From contig JAISBE010000012.1 of NCBI GenBank assembly GCA_031266365.1, positions 445 to 64,444 of the forward strand: a stretch of 64,000 bases of DNA, given 5' to 3'. Position numbers and translations under genes: made by a program. A model generated the notes under the pieces. It made no database searches. It saw only the letters and a program-made list of their open reading frames with translations, and was not told where the DNA came from. The stretch is from Oscillospiraceae bacterium (GTDB lineage Bacteria; Bacillota; Clostridia; Oscillospirales; Acutalibacteraceae). This document shows positions 49,610 through 62,216 of the stretch, piece by piece. Within the stretch, counting starts at the first letter, position 1; every line of letters begins with the position of its first letter.

Positions 49610-50302
49610 TTAATGGCGATATATAGCATATACAAAACGCGCAGCTGCAATAACAGGGCGAAACGCATTCTCGCACATATAATGATAAAGTTCATTAATC
49701 AAAAAACCCTCACCTCGGTCTCCATATCTACGTATATAATTGTAAACTACATCGTTAGGTATCTGCTCGAATTGGCGATGATCAATACAAAGCGCAACCC
49801 TAATATTTTCAACCTCAGCTTGCTCTTCTCTAGCAGCATTTCCAGCGTCTATCGCATCTTGATCTGCAGGGTATATAGGTAAATATAATTCACGTTCGAT
49901 ACTAGCAAAAGATACATCTTCCGTTAATAACTCAAATGCAAAATTAACGTAATGAGTACACGTAGCAGGAACTGCATCGTAATCATTTATATTATCAATT
50001 TCTGTAGTCTGATTATCATCTATTTTGTATAAAGAGCTAGAATCTCCTTCACCGAACTTAAACAACAAAACAGCATCTTTATCAAGCAAAAAACTGTCTT
50101 CACTCAGCTGAGAAAAAAACAAGACAAGCCCATCAAAACCTTGAGATTTATATGGCTCCCAATTGCTAACATTAAAATTCCCCCCTTTTATATCTATATT
50201 AATACATCCTTCAGCAAATACAATAGGTGATAAAGCAAACAAATTAACCAGTACTCCCAACGATGATAGGCAAAGCAATGATATTTTTTTAAATATTTTC
50301 AT
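49610..50302 (-). CDS. secreted hypothetical protein
   Basis: Signal peptide MKIFKKISLLCLSSLGVLVNLFALSPIVFA|EG. No recognisable domain. Confidence 0.5.
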   Translation of the reverse strand: MKIFKKISLLCLSSLGVLVNLFALSPIVFAEGCINIDIKGGNFNVSNWEPYKSQGFDGLVLFFSQLSEDSFLLDKDAVLLFKFGEGDSSSLYKIDDNQTTEIDNINDYDAVPATCTHYVNFAFELLTEDVSFASIERELYLPIYPADQDAIDAGNAAREEQAEVENIRVALCIDHRQFEQIPNDVVYNYIRRYGDRGEGFLINELYHYMCENAFRPVIAAARFVYAIYRH

Positions 50303-51380: not shown

Positions 51381-51771
51381 TATCTAACAAGCTCCCTTTT
51401 CTCGATAAAGCAGGATATGATATTTTTTATTTCCAATTTTTTCCATAATCATAAAAACAATTTATTAAGCAATTACTGATAGCCTTGCTTGCCGCATTTC
51501 TTTTTTAACAAATGCTTTATATATTTATTGTAAATATTTTGATTTCATTGTCAAGCTTTTTAAGCTTAATATTCGCTTTATTCAGCATTATAACTGAAAA
51601 TTAATTTTTTTATAAAATAGCACTTAACATGCTTCTGTTGCAAAAAATTGTAAAAATTAGTCAAGTATTTTTAAATAGAATATTTTTCAAAATTGTCAAA
51701 TTAAGATAATTTTCGCCATAAAATCATGCTATGATTTAACAGTAGTACAGAGTAAAAGGAGTGTTTATATA

Positions 51772-51795
51772 ATGAATACCACGCCACGTAACTAA
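51772..51795 (+). CDS. microcin C-like heptapeptide precursor (MccA-like): MNTTPRN
   Basis: ATG AAT ACC ACG CCA CGT AAC TAA. AAAGGAG RBS ends about 10 nt upstream. C-terminal Asn as in E. coli MccA (MRTGNAN). Lies directly upstream of the MccB-like gene. Confidence 0.7.
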   Translation: MNTTPRN

Positions 51796-51804
51796 AATTT
51801 CAAA

Positions 51805-51832
51805 GCTTCCTGACTATTATATGTCAGGAAGC
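51805..51832 (+). terminator. stem-loop between the heptapeptide ORF and the adenylyltransferase gene (attenuating terminator or stabiliser candidate)
   Basis: GCTTCCTGAC-TATTATAT-GTCAGGAAGC, a perfect 10-bp stem 9 nt after the stop codon. No clear T-tract follows. Confidence 0.55.
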
Positions 51833-51894
51833 CACTTGTAGTTAAATCTCAAAAAAATATTAGGCAATAAGAAAACAAACAGGAGGGCAAATCT

Positions 51895-52962
51895 TTGAGC
51901 ACAAATAAATACATTTTAGCCCCATATGTTGGGGTTGGCATGGATGAAAAAGCGATGTATATGGGATTTGGTTCACTTCAAAAGCTAGTTATTAATAAAA
52001 CAGAACAAACCTTGATTTTGTCGGCTGCTCAAAATTGGTTAGTCCCTAAAACAGAAGATGAAATGATTGAATTTCTGCAAAAAGAAAAATATTTCTCTAA
52101 AGATGATGCTCAAAAGGCAGTAAATTATTTAAAACAAGGCAACTATTTGATGAAAGCTTCCTATGATAAAAATGATCGATATAGCCGACCTGCATTATAT
52201 TATTCTCTATCCGGTGCTGATCCCGATTTAGTTCAGGAAAAATTATCAAATAAACACGTTTTAATTATCGGTTGTGGAGGGATAGGAAACCACATCTCGA
52301 GTGCTCTCGCCACAGCTGGCATAGGAAAATTAACTCTTATCGACTTTGATACTATAGAAATATCCAATTTAACAAGGCAAACCTTATTTACTGAAAAAGA
52401 CGAAGGGAAATCAAAAATAGAAATTTTAAAGCGCGAACTTTTAAAAAGAAATTCCACAATTCAAATCGATATAATTCAAAAAGAATCCGGGCAAAAAGAT
52501 GATATTTTTCCAAAATGCGATTTGGCTGTAGTCTCTGCAGATGGAAATTCAGTTGTTAGCAAATTCAACAGTTATGCTGTAAAAAATAATATACCATACA
52601 TAAACGTTGGATACATTGAAGATATTGCTATTTGGGGACCTTTTGTTATTCCCGGAAAAACTGGCTGTATTGCATGCGCCAAACTCGCTTCAAATACTCC
52701 ATTTGAAATTACATCTGACGAAGACAAAAAGAAATGGGAAATTATAGGAAAAATCAATGAAAGATATCAAGCACCATCTATCTGGGCAACCAACACTTTA
52801 GCCTCTTCTTTAGCCGTGCTGGATATCATACGCTACTTGGGAGAATTCGGTGAAATAATGTCAATCAATCGCAGAATGGGTTTATGGACGCATAATTTAA
52901 AACTGGATTTCCAAGAATGCCCGCCAAACAAGGCTTGTTCTGTCTGCGGCGGGGGTGTATAA
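51895..52962 (+). CDS. MccB-like ThiF/E1-family peptide adenylyltransferase
   Basis: 355 aa with a roughly 110-aa N-terminal extra domain. Rossmann motif HVLIIGCGGIGNHISSALATAGIGKLTLIDFDTIEISNLTRQTLF. YINVGYIEDIAIWGPFVIPGKTGCIAC and terminal CSVCGG. Closely parallels E. coli MccB as I recall it. TTG start after AGGAGGG. Confidence 0.8.
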   Translation: MSTNKYILAPYVGVGMDEKAMYMGFGSLQKLVINKTEQTLILSAAQNWLVPKTEDEMIEFLQKEKYFSKDDAQKAVNYLKQGNYLMKASYDKNDRYSRPALYYSLSGADPDLVQEKLSNKHVLIIGCGGIGNHISSALATAGIGKLTLIDFDTIEISNLTRQTLFTEKDEGKSKIEILKRELLKRNSTIQIDIIQKESGQKDDIFPKCDLAVVSADGNSVVSKFNSYAVKNNIPYINVGYIEDIAIWGPFVIPGKTGCIACAKLASNTPFEITSDEDKKKWEIIGKINERYQAPSIWATNTLASSLAVLDIIRYLGEFGEIMSINRRMGLWTHNLKLDFQECPPNKACSVCGGGV

Positions 52963-52982
52963 TTAAAAAGGAGGGTTTAAAA

Positions 52983-53630
52983 ATGGATTTATTAAATTTA
53001 GACAAACTTTCAACTGAAGCTAAAATGCTTGATATAACACCGGACCAAACAAGTCTAGGACTGCCAACTGAAGATTTTGCTAAAACTTCGTCTGTTGTCA
53101 CCGGCAGACTAAAATTATTTTCGATAAATTCACCTATAGATGAATCTGTGCGCGACAAAATTTCAAAATTTCGAAATGAATTCACCTCACAGGGCGATAA
53201 CTTAGATGGCTCGGCTGGTTTAGGAGAAGCAGCTTCTCTAGATGAGTGGTTTGCACAAATTCAAGATAATTCCTCGATAGAAACAGTTCGGGAAAATATG
53301 GTTCCCGCCTCCACATATTTGGCTTTAGATCAACACGATCATATAGTCGGCATAGCAGATATTCGCCACAGCTTAAATGATTACCTATTAGCAGCTGGTG
53401 GCCATATTGGCTATAGTGTTAGGCCAAGTCAGCGCAGGCAGGGATACGGAAAGGAAATTTTGTTTTTAGCCTTGTTAAAATGCAGAGAATTAGGAATAAA
53501 TAGGGTTTTACTTTCCTGCGATAGCGAAAACATAGCCAGCGAAAAAATAATACTTGCAAACGGTGGACAATTAGAAAATTGTGTGATTTTTGGTGATAAG
53601 GTTAAAAAGCGCTACTGGATTGAGTTATGA
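52983..53630 (+). CDS. GNAT family N-acetyltransferase (candidate MccE-like self-immunity)
   Basis: AAGGAGGG RBS plus ATG at 52983. GNAT core ...IGYSVRPSQRRQGYGKEILFLALLKCRELGINRVLLSCDSEN. Confidence 0.7.
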   Translation: MDLLNLDKLSTEAKMLDITPDQTSLGLPTEDFAKTSSVVTGRLKLFSINSPIDESVRDKISKFRNEFTSQGDNLDGSAGLGEAASLDEWFAQIQDNSSIETVRENMVPASTYLALDQHDHIVGIADIRHSLNDYLLAAGGHIGYSVRPSQRRQGYGKEILFLALLKCRELGINRVLLSCDSENIASEKIILANGGQLENCVIFGDKVKKRYWIEL

Positions 53631-54445
53631 AACCTGTATTTTTGACCGCAAAAGCTGTCACTTTAAAGAACAGAATAATAACAAACCGCGCATATCCTTT
53701 ATCTTCCTTCACAGAGAGGGTGGTAGGGTCTATATTTTCTATCATCTTCCCTGTATTTATATACTATTTTATATTCAATTGCCATATTTCTGAAAGCTTT
53801 ACAAAGCACGCCAACACGATGGATTATCTCACATATATCGTGCTAGGTCAAAGTGTGAATATAATTGCCGTTTCAACCTTGATGAGCGTTGGACGTTGCA
53901 TGATAACCGAGATTCGCGAAGGGACCTTAGATAATTTTCTGCTTTCTCCAGCTTCACGCATAGGCTATTTTTTAGGCAGCTATGTGGAGCAATTTTTAAG
54001 ATCTATGCTCGAATTCAGCTTGGTGTTGCTTGTGGGTATTACGCTTGGAGCTCGTATTCCAGCAGAAAAAGTTCCAATTATAGCGTTATTTATAATTTTT
54101 ATGTCGCTGGTATGCTTTTGCATGGCTATCCTAATTTCCACAATCATGGTTTTCACTAAAGATACTTATATTACCCAAAATACTTTCTTCTTATTGATCG
54201 ATTTTATCTGCGGGGTTCTTTTCCCGGTTGAATGTTTACCACATTGGCTACAGTATATATCTCAATTAATGCCGCTCACCTCTGCGCTAAAAGCTTTTCG
54301 CAATTGCATTTTAGGCAACCAGTCACTGCAAGATAATTGGATATTATTAGCCTATTCCAGCATTATTAGTATAGTTTTTTTAGCGATTGGTTACTGCTAT
54401 TTTAGAAAATTTGAAAAAAAATTGATAGAAAACATATATGTGTAA
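53627..54445 (+). CDS. ABC-2 type transporter permease
   Basis: 272-aa, roughly 6-TM ORF. Its start overlaps the GNAT stop by 4 nt. Confidence 0.7.
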   Translation: MKPVFLTAKAVTLKNRIITNRAYPLSSFTERVVGSIFSIIFPVFIYYFIFNCHISESFTKHANTMDYLTYIVLGQSVNIIAVSTLMSVGRCMITEIREGTLDNFLLSPASRIGYFLGSYVEQFLRSMLEFSLVLLVGITLGARIPAEKVPIIALFIIFMSLVCFCMAILISTIMVFTKDTYITQNTFFLLIDFICGVLFPVECLPHWLQYISQLMPLTSALKAFRNCILGNQSLQDNWILLAYSSIISIVFLAIGYCYFRKFEKKLIENIYV

Positions 54446-54459
54446 AATTAGGTGAGTTT

Positions 54460-55437
54460 ATGATTCAGGCTAAAAATTTGAATAAAATATATAAGATAAA
54501 AATGAAAAAGCACATCTGGAATCGCAGCGAAATTCAATACAAAGAAGCGGTACATGATATCAGCATGGACATAGAAAAAGGGAAAATAGTGGGATTACTT
54601 GGCGTTAATGGAGCCGGAAAAACCACAACCATCAAGATGCTATCAACCATGATATCTCCGTCTTCTGGGACTATTCATGTTGATGATATCGATGCTGTGA
54701 AATTTCCTTTTCATGCCAAAAAAATAATAAACCTCATAACAGGTGGAGAAAGGAATATTTATTGGAGATTATCCGCTCGAGAAAATTTGGAATATTTCGG
54801 AAGCTTATATGGTTTGACAAAAACTGAATTAAAAAAACGGATAGATTACTGCTTATCGATAGTTAATCTCACCAAAAATGCAGATATTCCTGTGGAAAAA
54901 TATTCCAAAGGCATGAAGCAGAGATTGCAAATTGCACGCGGCTTGATTAATAATCCCAGCTATATATTTTTGGATGAACCCACTTTAGGAATAGATATAT
55001 TGATGGCAAAAGAGTTGAGGGAATACATAAAGAGAATAACTGTGGAGGAAAATAAAGGCGTGCTCCTAACCACCCATTATATCGCGGAAGCAGATGAACT
55101 ATGCAACTATATTTATGTTATAAATAATGGGAAAATAGTCTCAGAGGGCACAGCAAATGATTTAAAAAAGCTATATACTTCAAATTACTGCCTGAACTTT
55201 ATTTTTGATTGCTACAACAAAAGCTTATTTGACGATATCGCCAAGCTTGAAAATATCATCAAAATCGAGCTAAATCCGGAATTACATTCAATAAAATTGA
55301 TCTCTAAAGAAAATTTAATAAAAAAAATCATACAGCTTTCTTCAAATTACAAATGCAACATAAACCAAATCAAAACTGAGGACAGCTTAGAGGCTTCATT
55401 GATGCAAATTTTGAAAGTTGGGAATAGCCATGCGTAA
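54460..55437 (+). CDS. ABC transporter ATP-binding protein (DrrA-like exporter ATPase)
   Basis: Walker A GVNGAGKTTT, signature YSKGMKQR, Walker B IFLDEPT. Confidence 0.85.
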   Translation: MIQAKNLNKIYKIKMKKHIWNRSEIQYKEAVHDISMDIEKGKIVGLLGVNGAGKTTTIKMLSTMISPSSGTIHVDDIDAVKFPFHAKKIINLITGGERNIYWRLSARENLEYFGSLYGLTKTELKKRIDYCLSIVNLTKNADIPVEKYSKGMKQRLQIARGLINNPSYIFLDEPTLGIDILMAKELREYIKRITVEENKGVLLTTHYIAEADELCNYIYVINNGKIVSEGTANDLKKLYTSNYCLNFIFDCYNKSLFDDIAKLENIIKIELNPELHSIKLISKENLIKKIIQLSSNYKCNINQIKTEDSLEASLMQILKVGNSHA

Positions 55438-56227
55438 TTGTTTAATAATATGCTCAGCAGAAGTAAAAAAAGCGCACAGAAACTATTTTAAATCAATTTC
55501 GAATTACTTTTCCCTGCTATTGTGGCCTATACTTTCATTCTTCACCACATATTACACTTATTCCTCTTTTGATAATTATTTTGACCCTGACTTAGCCAAT
55601 AAAACAAATTTTTTTACTTTTCTCATCTTGGGCTGTTTGGGCCACAACTGTTTTTGGGCTATGGTCCAGGGGGGCGTAATGCAAATCAGAGAAGAACGCA
55701 GAAATGGCGCATTAGAAATAATATATTTTTCACCAGCAAACCGATTAGCTTTACTTTACGGCAGAGCTTTAGGTGATTTCATTCAAAACACATGGATGTT
55801 TTTCATTTTTTCGTCAATAATAGTAATGTTGATATCCAAATTTACTTATATCATTTTGTTTAAAATTATTGGCAGTTTTATGGTATTATTACTCACTTCC
55901 ACCATCTGGGGAGGGCTAATTAATTCAATTTGCATCGCCACAAGAGACGCCGGCTTTCTATTCACTATAGGCGAACCCATGAACTTTTTTTCCGCAGTTA
56001 AATTTCCGCTAAAAAACTTACCATTCTGGGCAAGAGCAATTTCGCCGATCTTTCCCTCCACATATTGCATATATATAATTAGAGCGATTTTTATGGGAAA
56101 TAGCGTCAATACTATTAAAATCTTGGAGCTATTAACTTGCCTCTCAATTATAGTGGCAATCACTTATATACTCACTAAAATAACTGAAATTCACAATAGG
56201 AAAACGGGCAATTTACAATTTTATTAA
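55430..56227 (+). CDS. ABC-2 type transporter permease (second)
   Basis: The ATG at 55430 overlaps the ATPase stop (ATGCGTAA). Multi-TM ORF. Confidence 0.7.
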   Translation: MRNCLIICSAEVKKAHRNYFKSISNYFSLLLWPILSFFTTYYTYSSFDNYFDPDLANKTNFFTFLILGCLGHNCFWAMVQGGVMQIREERRNGALEIIYFSPANRLALLYGRALGDFIQNTWMFFIFSSIIVMLISKFTYIILFKIIGSFMVLLLTSTIWGGLINSICIATRDAGFLFTIGEPMNFFSAVKFPLKNLPFWARAISPIFPSTYCIYIIRAIFMGNSVNTIKILELLTCLSIIVAITYILTKITEIHNRKTGNLQFY

Positions 56228-56261: not shown

Positions 56262-56287
56262 AAGCCTTCTGCCAACCCAGAAGGCTT
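56262..56287 (+). terminator. intrinsic terminator after the exporter operon
   Basis: AAGCCTTCTG-CCAACC-CAGAAGGCTT (10-bp stem) followed by a T-rich run TAATTTATGTTCTTT. Confidence 0.7.
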
Positions 56288-56301: not shown

Positions 56302-56377
56302 TGGCGCCTCGTGTAGGGCTCGAACCTACGACACTGCGGTTAACAGCCGCATGCTCTGCCAACTGAGCTAACGAGGC
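56302..56377 (-). tRNA. tRNA-Asn (GTT)
   Basis: Hand-folded cloverleaf. Acceptor GCCTCGT/ACGAGGC, D arm GCTC..GAGC, anticodon arm TGCGG-CTGTTAA-CCGCA, T arm GTAGG-TTCGAGC-CCTAC, encoded CCA. Confidence 0.9.
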
Positions 56378-59108: not shown

Positions 59109-61331
59109 TTAAAAAATATTAGCTCTTTGAATAAATTCAACTGTAATAACTGTTTGTTGGCTCACTTCGGTACCTAACTTGATATTTTGGCGCACAGATT
59201 TGCTCTCATTGCCAGAATTCGTTGCTCCACTAACACACACATTAAGTTTCATTAGCGATGCCAATTTTTCAACCTGAGATAACGTCAATCCAACAAAATT
59301 TGGGACAGCCACTTTTTGTTCAGGGATTGTGCTATCTGTGGACAACAACACCGTACCACCTTTTGGGATTATAATTCCAGATTTAGGGTTCTGAGAAACC
59401 ACTTTGTTTTCGATTGGTCCACTCACTTGAACTTTGAGCCCCAGTCGCGATAACTTTTCTTTAGATTCATCCACCGAACAACCAATTAATAAAGGGGCAG
59501 ATACACCAGCATTTAAAAGCTCACTATTTGTAAACTTCTTCCTTACTCCTAAATGCGGCAATACCTCCTCCATAATAGTTCTGAAAGTTGGTGCAGCTAC
59601 TGCGCTTCCATAGTAATCTTTCCCTTTTGGGGTATCATAAATGACTAAAAGTGCAATTTGTGGGTCATCAGCCGGAGCACAGCCACAATACGATGCAATA
59701 TAATCCTTACCATCTTGGCCACTCTGGCCTATTTTTTCAGCTGTCCCTGTCTTTCCGAAAATTTGAAATCCTGGAACATTACCATTTCTTCCCGAACCGA
59801 CCTCCACATTTTTTTGCAACATTTTACGAAGTCTCTGTGATGTTTGTTTAGATATAACCTGCCTTTTAACATTTTTATCTACTATTTTTACTATATTATG
59901 AGAGTCGTCAATTATTTGCTTAACAACATGTGGTTTAACTAATTTACCACCATTTGCCACTGCCGAAACCGCTGTTATCAGTTGAATTGGGGTAATACTG
60001 AAATTTTGGCCAAATGATGCCACAACTAAAGACATCGGTTGCATAGTTCCGTCTTTGCTGAAGAAAATCCCATTTGCCTCCCCTGGTAAATCTACGCCTG
60101 TTTCCTGAGTAAGACCAAAATCTCTGTAATATTTATAAAATCTCTCCGCCCCCAAACTTTGTCCCAAAGCTATAAAAGCGGGGTTGCAGGAATGGCATAT
60201 AGCTTCTAAAAAACTTTGCGAACCATGCCCTTCTCGTTTGTGGCAATGCACTGTTTTTTCTTTATTAAACAGCCTAAATCCACCTGAACAGTTAAACCTC
60301 GTCCCTTCATTTACCACATCCTCTTCAAGCCCCATAGCTGCGGTAATCATCTTGAAAGTAGAGCCCGGCATGTATGTATCGCTAATTGCCTTATTTCGCC
60401 ACTGCTTTTGCAAAGCCTCACCCTCAGCTTTTGATCTTTCCTCTTTTTCCAAAGTTTCAATTCGCGCTTTTTCCTCTTCATTTTTTATATCAAATGGATT
60501 ATTTAAGTCATAGCCTTCCGTGGCCATTCCCAAAATTTCCCCATTATTGACATCCATCATAATGGCTACAGCGCCATTTACCACATTATTATGCACTCTA
60601 CCCGCCTCTAAATATTTTTCCATAACACCTTGGATATACTCATCTATTGATAAAACCAAACTGCGACCATTCTGAGCAGGCATAGATTGCTCATGCTCAC
60701 ATGGTATATCCATCCCAATTGCATTTTTAGCTGTGACAACTCTACCCGGCTTACCCGTTAATTCTTGGTCATAATAATTCTCAATACCAGATAATCCTTG
60801 ATTTTCTAATCCTGTAAACCCAATAACAGTCGAAGCCAAGCATCCACACGGATAACATCTCTTAGTATCATCTATAATCCTTATACCATTGCTAATTTTG
60901 TTATCTTTTTTAAATGCTAATATTTTGTCTCTATCACTGTTTTCTATTTTTCTTTTTATTATCTCATAAAAAGATTCTTTTCTCATTTTTTGCAAAATTT
61001 CGTCTTTATCTATCATTAATATTTCAGATAAACCCGTCGCGACGAGATTTTTCGATTCATCCGATTTTAAATAAACAGGCTCAAGGATCACCGTCCAAGC
61101 TTCAACACTTTGCGCAAGAGGCTTCATGTTTTTGTCATATATTGTTCCTCTTTTTGCATTTATGGCAATATCTTTTAATTGTTGAGCCATAGCCATTTGC
61201 TGAAGATCTTTCCCCTGAATCAGCTGCCATTCTACAAGTCTAAAAATGCTGACCCCAAAGCCTCCCACAAGCAATATAATCAATACCAAAAGCGCCCTAC
61301 GCCACATTCTCACAGTAACGCCTTTTGCCAT
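59109..61331 (-). CDS. class B penicillin-binding protein with two PASTA domains (PBP2B/SpoVD-like)
   Basis: Start trimmed to MAKGVTVRMWRRALLVLIILLVGG. Motifs STFK (SxxK) and KTGT. Two PASTA-like C-terminal repeats. Confidence 0.88.
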   Translation of the reverse strand: MAKGVTVRMWRRALLVLIILLVGGFGVSIFRLVEWQLIQGKDLQQMAMAQQLKDIAINAKRGTIYDKNMKPLAQSVEAWTVILEPVYLKSDESKNLVATGLSEILMIDKDEILQKMRKESFYEIIKRKIENSDRDKILAFKKDNKISNGIRIIDDTKRCYPCGCLASTVIGFTGLENQGLSGIENYYDQELTGKPGRVVTAKNAIGMDIPCEHEQSMPAQNGRSLVLSIDEYIQGVMEKYLEAGRVHNNVVNGAVAIMMDVNNGEILGMATEGYDLNNPFDIKNEEEKARIETLEKEERSKAEGEALQKQWRNKAISDTYMPGSTFKMITAAMGLEEDVVNEGTRFNCSGGFRLFNKEKTVHCHKREGHGSQSFLEAICHSCNPAFIALGQSLGAERFYKYYRDFGLTQETGVDLPGEANGIFFSKDGTMQPMSLVVASFGQNFSITPIQLITAVSAVANGGKLVKPHVVKQIIDDSHNIVKIVDKNVKRQVISKQTSQRLRKMLQKNVEVGSGRNGNVPGFQIFGKTGTAEKIGQSGQDGKDYIASYCGCAPADDPQIALLVIYDTPKGKDYYGSAVAAPTFRTIMEEVLPHLGVRKKFTNSELLNAGVSAPLLIGCSVDESKEKLSRLGLKVQVSGPIENKVVSQNPKSGIIIPKGGTVLLSTDSTIPEQKVAVPNFVGLTLSQVEKLASLMKLNVCVSGATNSGNESKSVRQNIKLGTEVSQQTVITVEFIQRANIF

Positions 61332-61516
61332 TTTATCAAGTCCTCCAAAAATACTATATCGCTCTTTAGGAATTATACTTAACCGACATAACACTAAATA
61401 TAATACTATTACTTTTCATTTAGTCAAGAAAAATAGTTATTATAAATAAAACTATATTAAATTATTTTTTTAGAGTTTTTATAAATCTATTAAATGTCAT
61501 AAAACATTTTTAATTT

Positions 61517-61591
61517 TGGCACCCCTGACCGGACTCGAACCGATATCTAAGTCTTAGGAGGACCTTGTTCTATCCTTTGAACTACAGGGGC
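61517..61591 (-). tRNA. tRNA-Arg (CCT)
   Basis: Hand-folded. Acceptor GCCCCTG/CAGGGGT (G1-U72), anticodon arm AGGTC-CTCCTAA-GACTT, T loop TTCGAGT, encoded CCA. Confidence 0.85.
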
Positions 61592-61727: not shown

Positions 61728-62216
61728 TCAATGCCTAATCTTAGAAAAAAATTCTAAAATTGCAGTTAAGATATTCTTTCGCTCACTATTTTCAATTTCA
61801 GCTTTATCAGTTTTCGACAAACTAATATATTCTATTTGCGTATTGTCAACTTTTCTCATGCCAAGATTCTCAATTGAATATTTTTCTATGTTCTCACGAG
61901 AAAATTGAGACTCCAACTCAATTTTTAACTGACTATATTCATTACGAGATTCGTTTAAACTTTTTTTGGCAACATAAATTTTATTCGTGAGTTCAGACAG
62001 TTGCACCTGGTTATAAACAGTTATACCTAAAATAGAAACGGAAACGGCTAAAGAGCACACTCCTAATATTAGCGTCGCCGGACGCAGTTTGGCTTTTTGC
62101 TTTTTTTCTTCGTTTTTAGTTAGGCTTACAATATTATCTCTGTATTTCTGTCCTTTTGGTTTAGCCTCAAACAAAGATAGATCATAAGCTAAGTTTTTTT
62201 CAGAAATTCCCAACAT
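61728..62216 (-). CDS. ftsL: FtsL-like cell division protein
   Basis: 162 aa, single TM (LILGVCSLAVSVSILGITVY) followed by a coiled coil. Lies between rsmH and the PBP gene. Confidence 0.65.
   Translation of the reverse strand: MLGISEKNLAYDLSLFEAKPKGQKYRDNIVSLTKNEEKKQKAKLRPATLILGVCSLAVSVSILGITVYNQVQLSELTNKIYVAKKSLNESRNEYSQLKIELESQFSRENIEKYSIENLGMRKVDNTQIEYISLSKTDKAEIENSERKNILTAILEFFSKIRH

Follow-up and report, generated by a model that had tools for sequence, protein, structure and literature searches.

A probable chromosomal microcin C-type operon with the precursor heptapeptide MNTTPRN in an uncultured Oscillospiraceae bacterium

A stretch of 64,000 nucleotides (nt) of contig JAISBE010000012.1 (assembly GCA_031266365.1), called the window throughout, was analysed. 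The window belongs to an uncultured Oscillospiraceae bacterium and very probably harbours an intact chromosomal operon for the biosynthesis of a microcin C (McC)-type compound, that is, a peptidyl-nucleotide acting as a Trojan horse. All of the features which define mcc-type clusters and the MccB clade, and which can be looked for in a sequence, were found; in the case of the cluster, these are a conserved Asn-terminated open reading frame (ORF), a long spacer with a hairpin and a co-directional export pump in the operon. The five-gene unit covers ~4.9 kb and its features, all on the forward strand, are the following:

51727 to 51735, forward strand: candidate extended -10 promoter element (TGcTATGAT), read by hand from the sequence, which would give a leader of ~30 nt to mccA
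51756 to 51762, forward strand: Shine-Dalgarno (SD) site AAAGGAG of the precursor minigene
51772 to 51795, forward strand: mccA-like minigene of 7 codons plus stop (ATG AAT ACC ACG CCA CGT AAC TAA), encoding MNTTPRN
51805 to 51832, forward strand: intergenic hairpin with a 10-bp stem and an 8-nt loop, lacking a U-tract; predicted to attenuate transcription as a terminator and/or to stabilise the mccA mRNA
51895 to 52962, forward strand: mccB, predicted ThiF/E1-like peptide C-terminal nucleotidyltransferase of the MccB clade (355 amino acids (aa), TTG start; match to MccB in PDB)
52980 to 53630, forward strand: stand-alone GNAT of the Acetyltransf_3 type (216 aa; Pfam), putative self-immunity acetyltransferase
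53627 to 54445, forward strand: ABC-2 permease 1, DrrB-like (Pfam, NCBIfam); its start codon and the stop codon of the GNAT gene share ATGA (53627-53630)
54460 to 55437, forward strand: ABC ATPase, DrrA-like (TIGR01188, 245 bits)
55418 to 56227, forward strand: ABC-2 permease 2, starting at TTG 55418 or ATG 55430 and overlapping the ATPase stop
56262 to 56287, forward strand: terminator-like hairpin closing the operon, between it and a convergent tRNA-Asn gene

The enzyme encoded at 51895-52962 is predicted to be an MccB, and not a ThiF or a MoeB, converting Asn via a succinimide into an N-P nucleotidylate. MccB enzymes have an N-terminal RRE peptide-clamp domain that is not present in ThiF or MoeB, together with a nucleotide loop, catalytic Arg and Asp residues and two CxxC pairs forming a Zn site. 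The best matches among all PDB chains were the three E. coli MccB sequences (phmmer; 3h5n, E = 2e-73, 251 bits). Residues 5-353 of the query aligned with residues 5-351 of the chain, and the match therefore takes in the peptide-clamp domain. By contrast, the next matches (Uba1, 67 bits; ThiF and MoeB, 64 bits; PaaA, 5ff5, 61 bits; E-values of 1e-15 to 1e-17) were confined to the Rossmann core. An earlier interpretation of this DNA, made from its letters alone (the sequence-only reading), had proposed comparing the enzyme with MccB and with the other ThiF clades, and it is with MccB (251 bits) that it groups rather than with MoeB, ThiF or PaaA (61-64 bits). It had also listed a series of MccB motifs. 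Residue-by-residue alignment to E. coli MccB (38.5% identity) contains every one of them: RYSR, GCGGIGNH, NLTRQ.LF, K.K.E..KRELLKRNS, PYIN.GY..DIA..GP, PGKTGC..C and CSVCG. In an alignment of 25 family members, G126-C-G-G-I-G131, D150, R161, Q162, D216 and the cysteines C258, C261, C348 and C351 were invariant; the N-terminal block YxLAPYV was conserved, and G15, G26 and S27 did not vary.

The nearest relatives of the enzyme in a collection of 5.8 billion proteins are 56-59% identical. The public gene call for the window enzyme (P0001, 340 aa) starts 15 codons after the likely TTG start, cutting off window positions 51895-51939 and losing the YxLAPYV block. The difference is relevant, since the Helicobacter pylori pHPM8 enzyme loses its activity when the N-terminal clamp is truncated (PMC4010828). 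One MccB relative (P0102, 597 aa, 42% identical) carries a fused Peptidase_S51 domain, in line with the published part played by S51 peptidases in resistance to McC (PMC9239234).

The precursor minigene stands out from its background and is conserved in position. The window (128 kb, counting both strands) has no more than three M-x5-N-stop ORFs, and the mccA-like ORF is the only one preceded by an SD site; the chance expectation in the window is ~0.01 per upstream region of 500 nt. Relatives' loci were taken from genome, metagenome and assembly collections, and the 600 nt upstream of each enzyme gene were scanned. The metagenome scan with the MccB alignment was flooded by generic ThiF matches to the GCGGIG pattern, and five true mccB loci were gained from it. 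An SD site followed by a 7-codon Asn-terminated ORF, 40-260 nt 5' of the enzyme gene, was found in 26 of the 28 non-actinobacterial loci with enough upstream sequence, so that the short upstream ORF which the sequence-only reading expected to be kept beside orthologues is indeed there. The usual arrangement in these relatives is an SD site, an M-x5-N heptapeptide ORF, mostly a hairpin, and then mccB. The two exceptions have a longer Asn-terminated ORF (L036) and an ORF of 6 or 12 codons (L061). As a positive control, the same script found E. coli MccA (MRTGNAN) on an E. coli plasmid and on a metagenome contig.

The heptapeptides of the closest relatives are MNDTVCN (L001), MNDVVCN (twice, including L002) and MNDRVCN, and those at further loci include MNTTLGN, MNTVPGN, MNTTGGN, MNTDTSN, MNTDGAN, MNTITTN, MNTISKN, MNTITKN and MNASLKN. 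In about 19 actinobacterial loci of the Nocardiopsis/Thermobifida type (MccB 41-45% identical; L006, L010-L014, L016-L023, L028, L032, L033, L035, L038 and L040, from Nocardiopsis, Murinocardiopsis and Salinactinospora), no 7-codon Asn-terminated ORF with any start codon was present within 400-600 nt upstream. The actinobacterial precursor, if there is one, is sited elsewhere or is of another type, and this has no bearing on the window. MNTTPRN was not found in the full text of the mcc literature searched, and a 2019 table of predicted MccA peptides holds no MNT- peptide and one Clostridium entry only.

A bias was observed in the first residues of these peptides. The heptapeptides beside relatives of the window MccB start with M-N in 20 of 27 cases and with M-N-T in 10 of 27, while the literature describes MccA sequences as not conserved except for Met1 and Asn7. 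The M-N peptides come from metagenome-assembled genomes of Chlamydiae, Alpha- and Gammaproteobacteria, and from the Oscillospiraceae bacterium of the window. This bias could reflect recognition by the clamp or the translation efficiency of the minigene.

The spacer between mccA and mccB (99 nt) contains a stable hairpin that starts 9 nt past the mccA stop, with the arms GCTTCCTGAC and GTCAGGAAGC forming 10 perfect pairs. Its predicted RNA folding free energy is -18.5 kcal/mol (z = -7.9), a stability reached by 0 of 200 shuffled sequences; for the whole spacer, z = -3.0. Of the 20 loci examined, 13 have a hairpin of -12 kcal/mol or below after the ORF for the heptapeptide. The E. coli spacer (locus L046), folded in the same way, gave a hairpin of 10 bp and, after it, a tail rich in A but not in U, which is also the pattern of the window. 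The E. coli operon has an intrinsic terminator between these two genes which, combined with ribosome binding, leaves a short stable mccA mRNA in ~20-fold excess. H. pylori behaves likewise, and a long mccA-mccB spacer with terminator-like sequences occurs, according to the authors, in all mcc-like operons (PMC4231749). The hairpin that the sequence-only reading had pointed out thus matches the architecture of the E. coli and H. pylori terminators and, by analogy, it may terminate transcription in the window.

The remaining elements of that reading (the 7-codon ORF, the ThiF/E1 enzyme, the GNAT and the ABC-2 cassette) were likewise present where it had placed them. Pfam families follow one another across the five ORFs as ThiF; Acetyltransf_3/Acetyltransf_1; ABC2_membrane; ABC_tran; ABC2_membrane. 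All five ORFs are intact and a single terminator is located after the last gene. The junctions are tight: 17 nt between mccB and the GNAT gene, -4 nt between the GNAT gene and permease 1, 14 nt between permease 1 and the ATPase, and -8 or -20 nt between the ATPase and permease 2. The TTG start of mccB lies 8 nt after AGGAGG, and the GNAT start 4 nt after a AAAGGAGG site. Upstream of mccA there is an AT-rich spacer of 390 nt. Two copies of AATTGTMAAWWT (51646-51657 and 51691-51702, forward strand, 45 nt apart) are located in the putative mccA promoter region and are a possible operator; this repetition is not significant, as 6 of 100 shuffles gave at least three matches window-wide. No direct repeats were found in the 520-nt upstream region, and an Rfam search of the window for riboswitch or leader families gave two tRNAs only.

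Several observations weigh against the interpretation of this locus as an McC operon. The organism is represented by a metagenome-assembled contig only, and a consensus scan of the forward strand upstream of mccA gave no two-hexamer promoter. As the window hairpin has no U-tract, its role in termination is assumed by analogy with E. coli, where the hairpin lacks one too. The nucleotide added to the peptide is not readable from the sequence, and MccB is promiscuous for nucleoside triphosphates (NTPs) in vitro and takes all four (PMC8323819). Comparison of the GNAT with E. coli MccE gave E = 1.7 in BLASTP and 5.9% probability in a profile-profile alignment (hhalign) restricted to a 60-residue GNAT core, while a profile search of PDB at E <= 1 returned Rim-type and polyamine acetyltransferases and no MccE chain. 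No homologue of any of the three ABC-2 genes was detected in the flanking sequence fetched for the 46 other mccB loci. A cassette of the same three genes (permease, ATPase, permease; 54-58% identical) is present in other Clostridia-like contigs without mccB, in unrelated neighbourhoods, and the substrate of the cassette in the window is deduced from operon membership only.

The GNAT is the component whose function is hardest to assign. It matches PF13302 (Acetyltransf_3, 5e-9) and PF00583 (Acetyltransf_1, 5e-8) and is of the Rim-like type; E. coli MccE matches the same two Pfam families. The sequence-only reading had likened it to the GNAT domain of MccE. That it is a GNAT of the Acetyltransf_3 type was borne out, but a specific relationship with MccE's C-terminal domain was not, as the three comparisons with MccE given above indicate. 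Orthology with this domain was ruled out, the similarity not extending beyond the generic GNAT core. Related GNATs are encoded in two sister mcc clusters, namely L002 (52% identical over 167 residues) and L047 (29% identical, with the motif IRHxLNxxL…GHIGY in common), which ties the GNAT to the pathway and makes an immunity role plausible. By analogy with MccE2, and judging from its context, the GNAT would act by acetylating the processed aminoacyl-nucleotide. A single-sequence AlphaFold2 model was too poor for inspection of the pocket (pLDDT 39.8).

Alternatively, the GNAT might tailor the product (by acetylating its peptide or nucleotide part, for instance), or be an unrelated passenger, with self-protection provided by the ABC pump alone. 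The poor similarity to MccE past the generic GNAT core speaks for this option, as do the absence of an NCBIfam model for the window GNAT and its N-terminal extension of ~35-55 aa, which is missing in the L002 homologue. However, the gene shows translational coupling inside the operon (with a strong SD site 17 nt past mccB, and a stop that overlaps the permease start), GNATs 52% and 29% identical to it occur in the only two sister clusters whose contigs reach that far, and its best PDB matches are Rim-type N-alpha-acetyltransferases. E. coli RimL reportedly confers McC resistance, according to a paper cited in a review (PMC12250964). On balance we regard a tailoring or passenger GNAT as unlikely, if worth keeping in mind.

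With regard to the nucleotide, AMP would be the most likely one. All of the MccBs known to cytidylate in vivo have a C-terminal methyltransferase domain, and MccS is confined to their clusters (PMC8323819). The features of this cytidylating subgroup (Bacillus amyloliquefaciens/Yersinia pseudotuberculosis type) were not found in the window: Pfam recognises only a ThiF domain in the 355 aa of the enzyme, which ends in CSVCGGGV, and there are no extra genes in the cluster. Specifically, the region 51.4-56.3 kb has no mccD, mccE N-terminal domain (NTD), methyltransferase, MccS, MccF, HIT or S51 gene. An undecorated peptidyl-adenylate is predicted because the genes for the methyltransferase, MccS and MccD/MccE-NTD are absent.

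The attachment of CMP (or GMP/UMP) by the same logic, giving a peptidyl-cytidylate, is rather improbable. The closest relatives (56-59% identical) adjoin a gene of the U32 family, which could hint at pyrimidine chemistry in the sister clade. The U32 family includes pyrimidine hydroxylases. The acceptance of four NTPs in vitro and the existence of clades that cytidylate in vivo (PMC8323819) also speak for a nucleotide other than AMP. Nevertheless, the cluster in the window has no U32 gene, the fused methyltransferase domain and the MccS partner of the in vivo cytidylating enzymes (PMC8323819) are missing from it, and the heptapeptide-type MccBs assayed to date all adenylate (PMC4010828).

Both permeases match PF01061 and PF12698, and the ATPase matches PF00005. 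The exporter is an ABC-2 system rather than a member of the MFS (Pfam, NCBIfam), as the sequence-only reading had it, and the pump is not an MccC homologue. NCBIfam scores (drrA, 245 bits; drrB, 61 and 44 bits) are all under the subfamily cut-offs, so the DrrAB-type assignment stands at the family level only. The close mcc relatives carry an MFS pump. Elsewhere, the cassette is accompanied by a C39-like peptidase and a two-component system, by an HTH_5 regulator, or by an Rce1-like gene with a radical-SAM/PqqD/thymidylate-kinase/CYTH/HD group. Since it occurs in unrelated contexts in Clostridia and beside no other mccB, the cassette can be viewed as a portable export module taken up in place of MccC.

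These same observations, together with the uncultured state of the organism and the lack of a clear promoter, might suggest an inactive relic, or an ABC-2 cassette with a separate function (a resistance pump) that abuts an orphan mccAB pair. This is quite improbable, because none of the five ORFs is disrupted, the catalytic residues are conserved, the junctions overlap or are very short with one terminator after the last gene, and the block is the sole forward-strand unit in more than 20 kb of reverse-strand genes, which argues for a single acquired unit. Moreover, an mccAB pair without an exporter would poison itself, the minimal cluster needing a pump (PMC8323819). A contig with the cassette at 54% identity (L054, 152-9604) was observed in which it adjoins the Rce1-like (CPBP) gene, with a divergent group nearby that encodes a CYTH protein, a hypothetical protein, PqqD, a thymidylate kinase, an HD hydrolase and a B12-binding radical-SAM enzyme. 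L054 may be another peptide/nucleotide natural-product cluster with the same pump.

That the enzyme activates a ThiS/MoaD sulfur carrier or is another ThiF type from pathways for ribosomally synthesised and post-translationally modified peptides (PaaA, thiolactone or indolylamide cyclase), the 7-codon ORF being fortuitous, is effectively refuted: Pfam gives a generic ThiF domain only and the top NCBIfam models by E-value are ThiF and MoeB, but these matches are far below the curated cut-offs (TIGR02356, 99.9 versus 275) and cover only residues ~90-260, whereas MccB structures match at full length including the clamp, there are no ThiS/MoaD, thiamine or molybdenum cofactor genes nearby, and the heptapeptide ORF is kept across relatives.

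Under the preferred interpretation, a microcin C-type operon, the pathway would work as follows. A promoter in the 390-nt AT-rich spacer would transcribe the minigene, which has a strong SD site, and fMet-Asn-Thr-Thr-Pro-Arg-Asn would be produced. The hairpin would end most of the transcripts and stabilise the short mRNA, as in E. coli and H. pylori, and consequently the peptide would be in excess over the enzymes. To judge from E. coli MccB, the heptapeptide would be held in the N-terminal clamp of the enzyme, and its C-terminal Asn would become an isoasparaginyl phosphoramidate (N-P) nucleoside monophosphate at the expense of two NTPs, with a succinimide as intermediate. The expected product is an undecorated heptapeptidyl-adenylate, formyl-MNTTPR-isoAsn-phosphoramidate-adenosine. 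The predicted [M+H]+ values, calculated from residue masses and calibrated on the published shift from 763.5 to 1092.5 for MRTGNAN, are 833.39 (peptide), 815.38 (succinimide), 1162.45 (adenylate) and 1190.44 (formylated adenylate). The ABC-2 cassette would export this product in the role of the MFS pump MccC. Protection of the producer, the weakest step, would be provided by the GNAT through acetylation of the alpha-amino group of the internally processed aminoacyl-nucleotide. In the target cell, as in other members of the family, uptake by a peptide permease and trimming by peptidases would release a non-hydrolysable mimic of aspartyl-adenylate that blocks aspartyl-tRNA synthetase. One speculation is that the Thr-Pro bond at positions 4-5 may need a proline-specific peptidase.

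The cluster was compared with the known mcc systems. It shares with the plasmid-borne E. coli mccABCDE-F (microcin C7/C51; MccB structures 3h5n, 3h5a and 6om4) an SD site with a 7-codon Asn-terminated precursor, a long mccA-mccB spacer with a 10-bp hairpin and no U-tract, a full-length MccB (clamp, nucleotide loop and Zn tetrathiolate), and a GNAT gene and an exporter within the same operon. It differs in the peptide (MNTTPRN versus MRTGNAN), in the absence of MccD/MccE-NTD, and hence of the aminopropyl decoration, and of MccF, in a stand-alone GNAT whose sequence is unlike the MccE C-terminal domain, in a three-gene ABC-2 exporter instead of the MFS MccC, and in its chromosomal location in an anaerobe of the Gram-positive type. 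Minimal mccABC systems were validated in vitro for H. pylori (MKLSYRN), Streptococcus thermophilus (MKGTILN), Lactobacillus johnsonii (MHRIMKN) and Bartonella washoensis (MDHIGFN) (PMC4010828). They resemble the window, Firmicutes being among their hosts, in the heptapeptide, in an MccB without extra domains, in the lack of secondary-decoration genes and in a plain peptidyl-adenylate product (predicted in the case of the window). However, they have an MFS MccC and no immunity gene in the cluster, whereas the window has an ABC-2 pump and a GNAT.

The sister clusters (L001, L002, L047 and L048) have the closest MccBs (56-59%) and the same heptapeptide and hairpin architecture, and the GNAT of L002 is of the same family as that of the window. 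Their gene order is mccA (MND[TVR]VCN), mccB, MFS pump, Peptidase_U32, (S66 MccF), GNAT. The contigs of two of them reach past U32, L002 having S66 (MccF) and then the GNAT, and L047 having the GNAT. The window differs in that it has no MFS, U32 or S66 gene, in the GNAT placed directly after mccB, in the ABC-2 cassette and in a peptide without the conserved Cys6 of the sister peptides. The U32 gene directly follows the MFS pump in all four sister clusters (L001, 5732-6877; L002, 8356-9504; L047, 3244-4389; L048, 3232-4377), and no link between U32 and microcin C was found in the literature searched. The U32 family also includes O2-independent RNA/quinone hydroxylases, and U32 may be an unrecognised tailoring step in the sister clusters.

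The mcc-like cluster of Synechococcus CC9605 (PMC4010828) is similar to the one described here in having mccB with three ABC-transporter genes that replace MccC, likened to those of the window by their published description only, and a separate GNAT; the latter resembles the MccE C-terminal domain. By contrast, it has a 56-aa precursor, homologues of MccD and MccE-NTD, and its ABC genes upstream of mccB. McC-like clusters are widespread and combinatorial (PMC4010828, PMC6495379, PMC8323819, PMC12250964), and ABC and GNAT neighbours of mccB have already been listed as variations (PMC4010828, Fig. 5 legend). The sequence-only reading had called the cluster a specific, probably uncharacterised variant. 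A new precursor peptide and a distinctive gene combination were indeed found (a non-MccE GNAT and an ABC-2 cassette, with no decoration genes), but since such neighbours of mccB are already known, the cluster is not a new variant class and the combination is not conceptually surprising.

The genes around the operon are on the reverse strand. One flank comprises ribosomal-protein genes (L3, L4, L2, S3, L5), NrdG, a secreted hypothetical protein and glucokinase; the other comprises tRNA-Asn(GTT) and the division and cell wall (dcw) genes ftsW, mraY, a PBP gene, ftsL and rsmH. Neighbouring features are the following:

49610 to 50302, reverse strand: ORF of 230 aa that begins with a segment resembling a signal peptide and matches no Pfam family, between nrdG and glucokinase, two genes upstream of the cluster
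56302 to 56377, reverse strand: tRNA-Asn(GTT), abutting the 3' end of the cluster with only the shared hairpin (56262-56287) between them
61517 to 61591, reverse strand: tRNA-Arg(CCT), in the division/cell-wall cluster, with ftsL (61728-62216) on one side and the PBP gene (59109-61394) on the other

As it is the only forward-strand unit in this neighbourhood, the mcc block is probably a single acquired unit, and its acquisition by insertion beside the tRNA is likely. The flanking glucokinase has, besides its own entry, a nearest relative of only 60% identity among 5.8 billion proteins, and synteny is not conserved in a relative of 59% identity; with relatives this distant and synteny not kept, insertion is not demonstrable by comparison with an empty site. 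No att-like repeats linking the end of tRNA-Asn to the far end of the cluster were found, and the GC content of the cluster (0.30-0.39) showed no difference from its flanks. Three other mcc loci abut tRNA genes (tRNA-Met in L007 and L037, tRNA-Arg in L041), which fits tRNA genes being insertion sites. A functional partnership of the cluster with tRNA-Asn was rejected, no other mcc locus having a tRNA-Asn. Nothing was found that ties the ORF at 49610-50302 to the mcc cluster. Within the dcw genes of the window, murE, murF and murD are absent between the PBP gene, mraY and ftsW.

Few natural inhibitors of aminoacyl-tRNA synthetases bring along their own delivery vehicle. Microcin C-like compounds belong to these few, and it is their peptide part that decides which bacteria are targeted. 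The picture of how the mcc family works is unchanged by this cluster, which adds to it a precursor peptide, MNTTPRN, that is new relative to the literature searched, from an underexplored host, the uncultured Oscillospiraceae. It raises the questions of whether a second GNAT family, unrelated to MccE, detoxifies aminoacyl-nucleotides, and whether an ABC-2 cassette can substitute for MccC. A broader combined claim is advanced here only tentatively, the balance being somewhat against all of its parts holding together: that this would be the first microcin C-type system of the strictly anaerobic gut-type Clostridia (Oscillospiraceae), with a new class of immunity GNAT unrelated to the MccE C-terminal domain and shared with the sister mcc clade, a portable ABC-2 cassette that other Clostridial peptide-type clusters recruit, and a Pro-containing MNTTPRN that steers uptake and processing in Gram-positive anaerobes by routes other than YejABEF and PepA/B/N. 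The cluster, a compact and testable five-gene unit, is of value mainly as a well-defined candidate for antibiotic discovery and for MccB-based chemistry at peptide C-termini.

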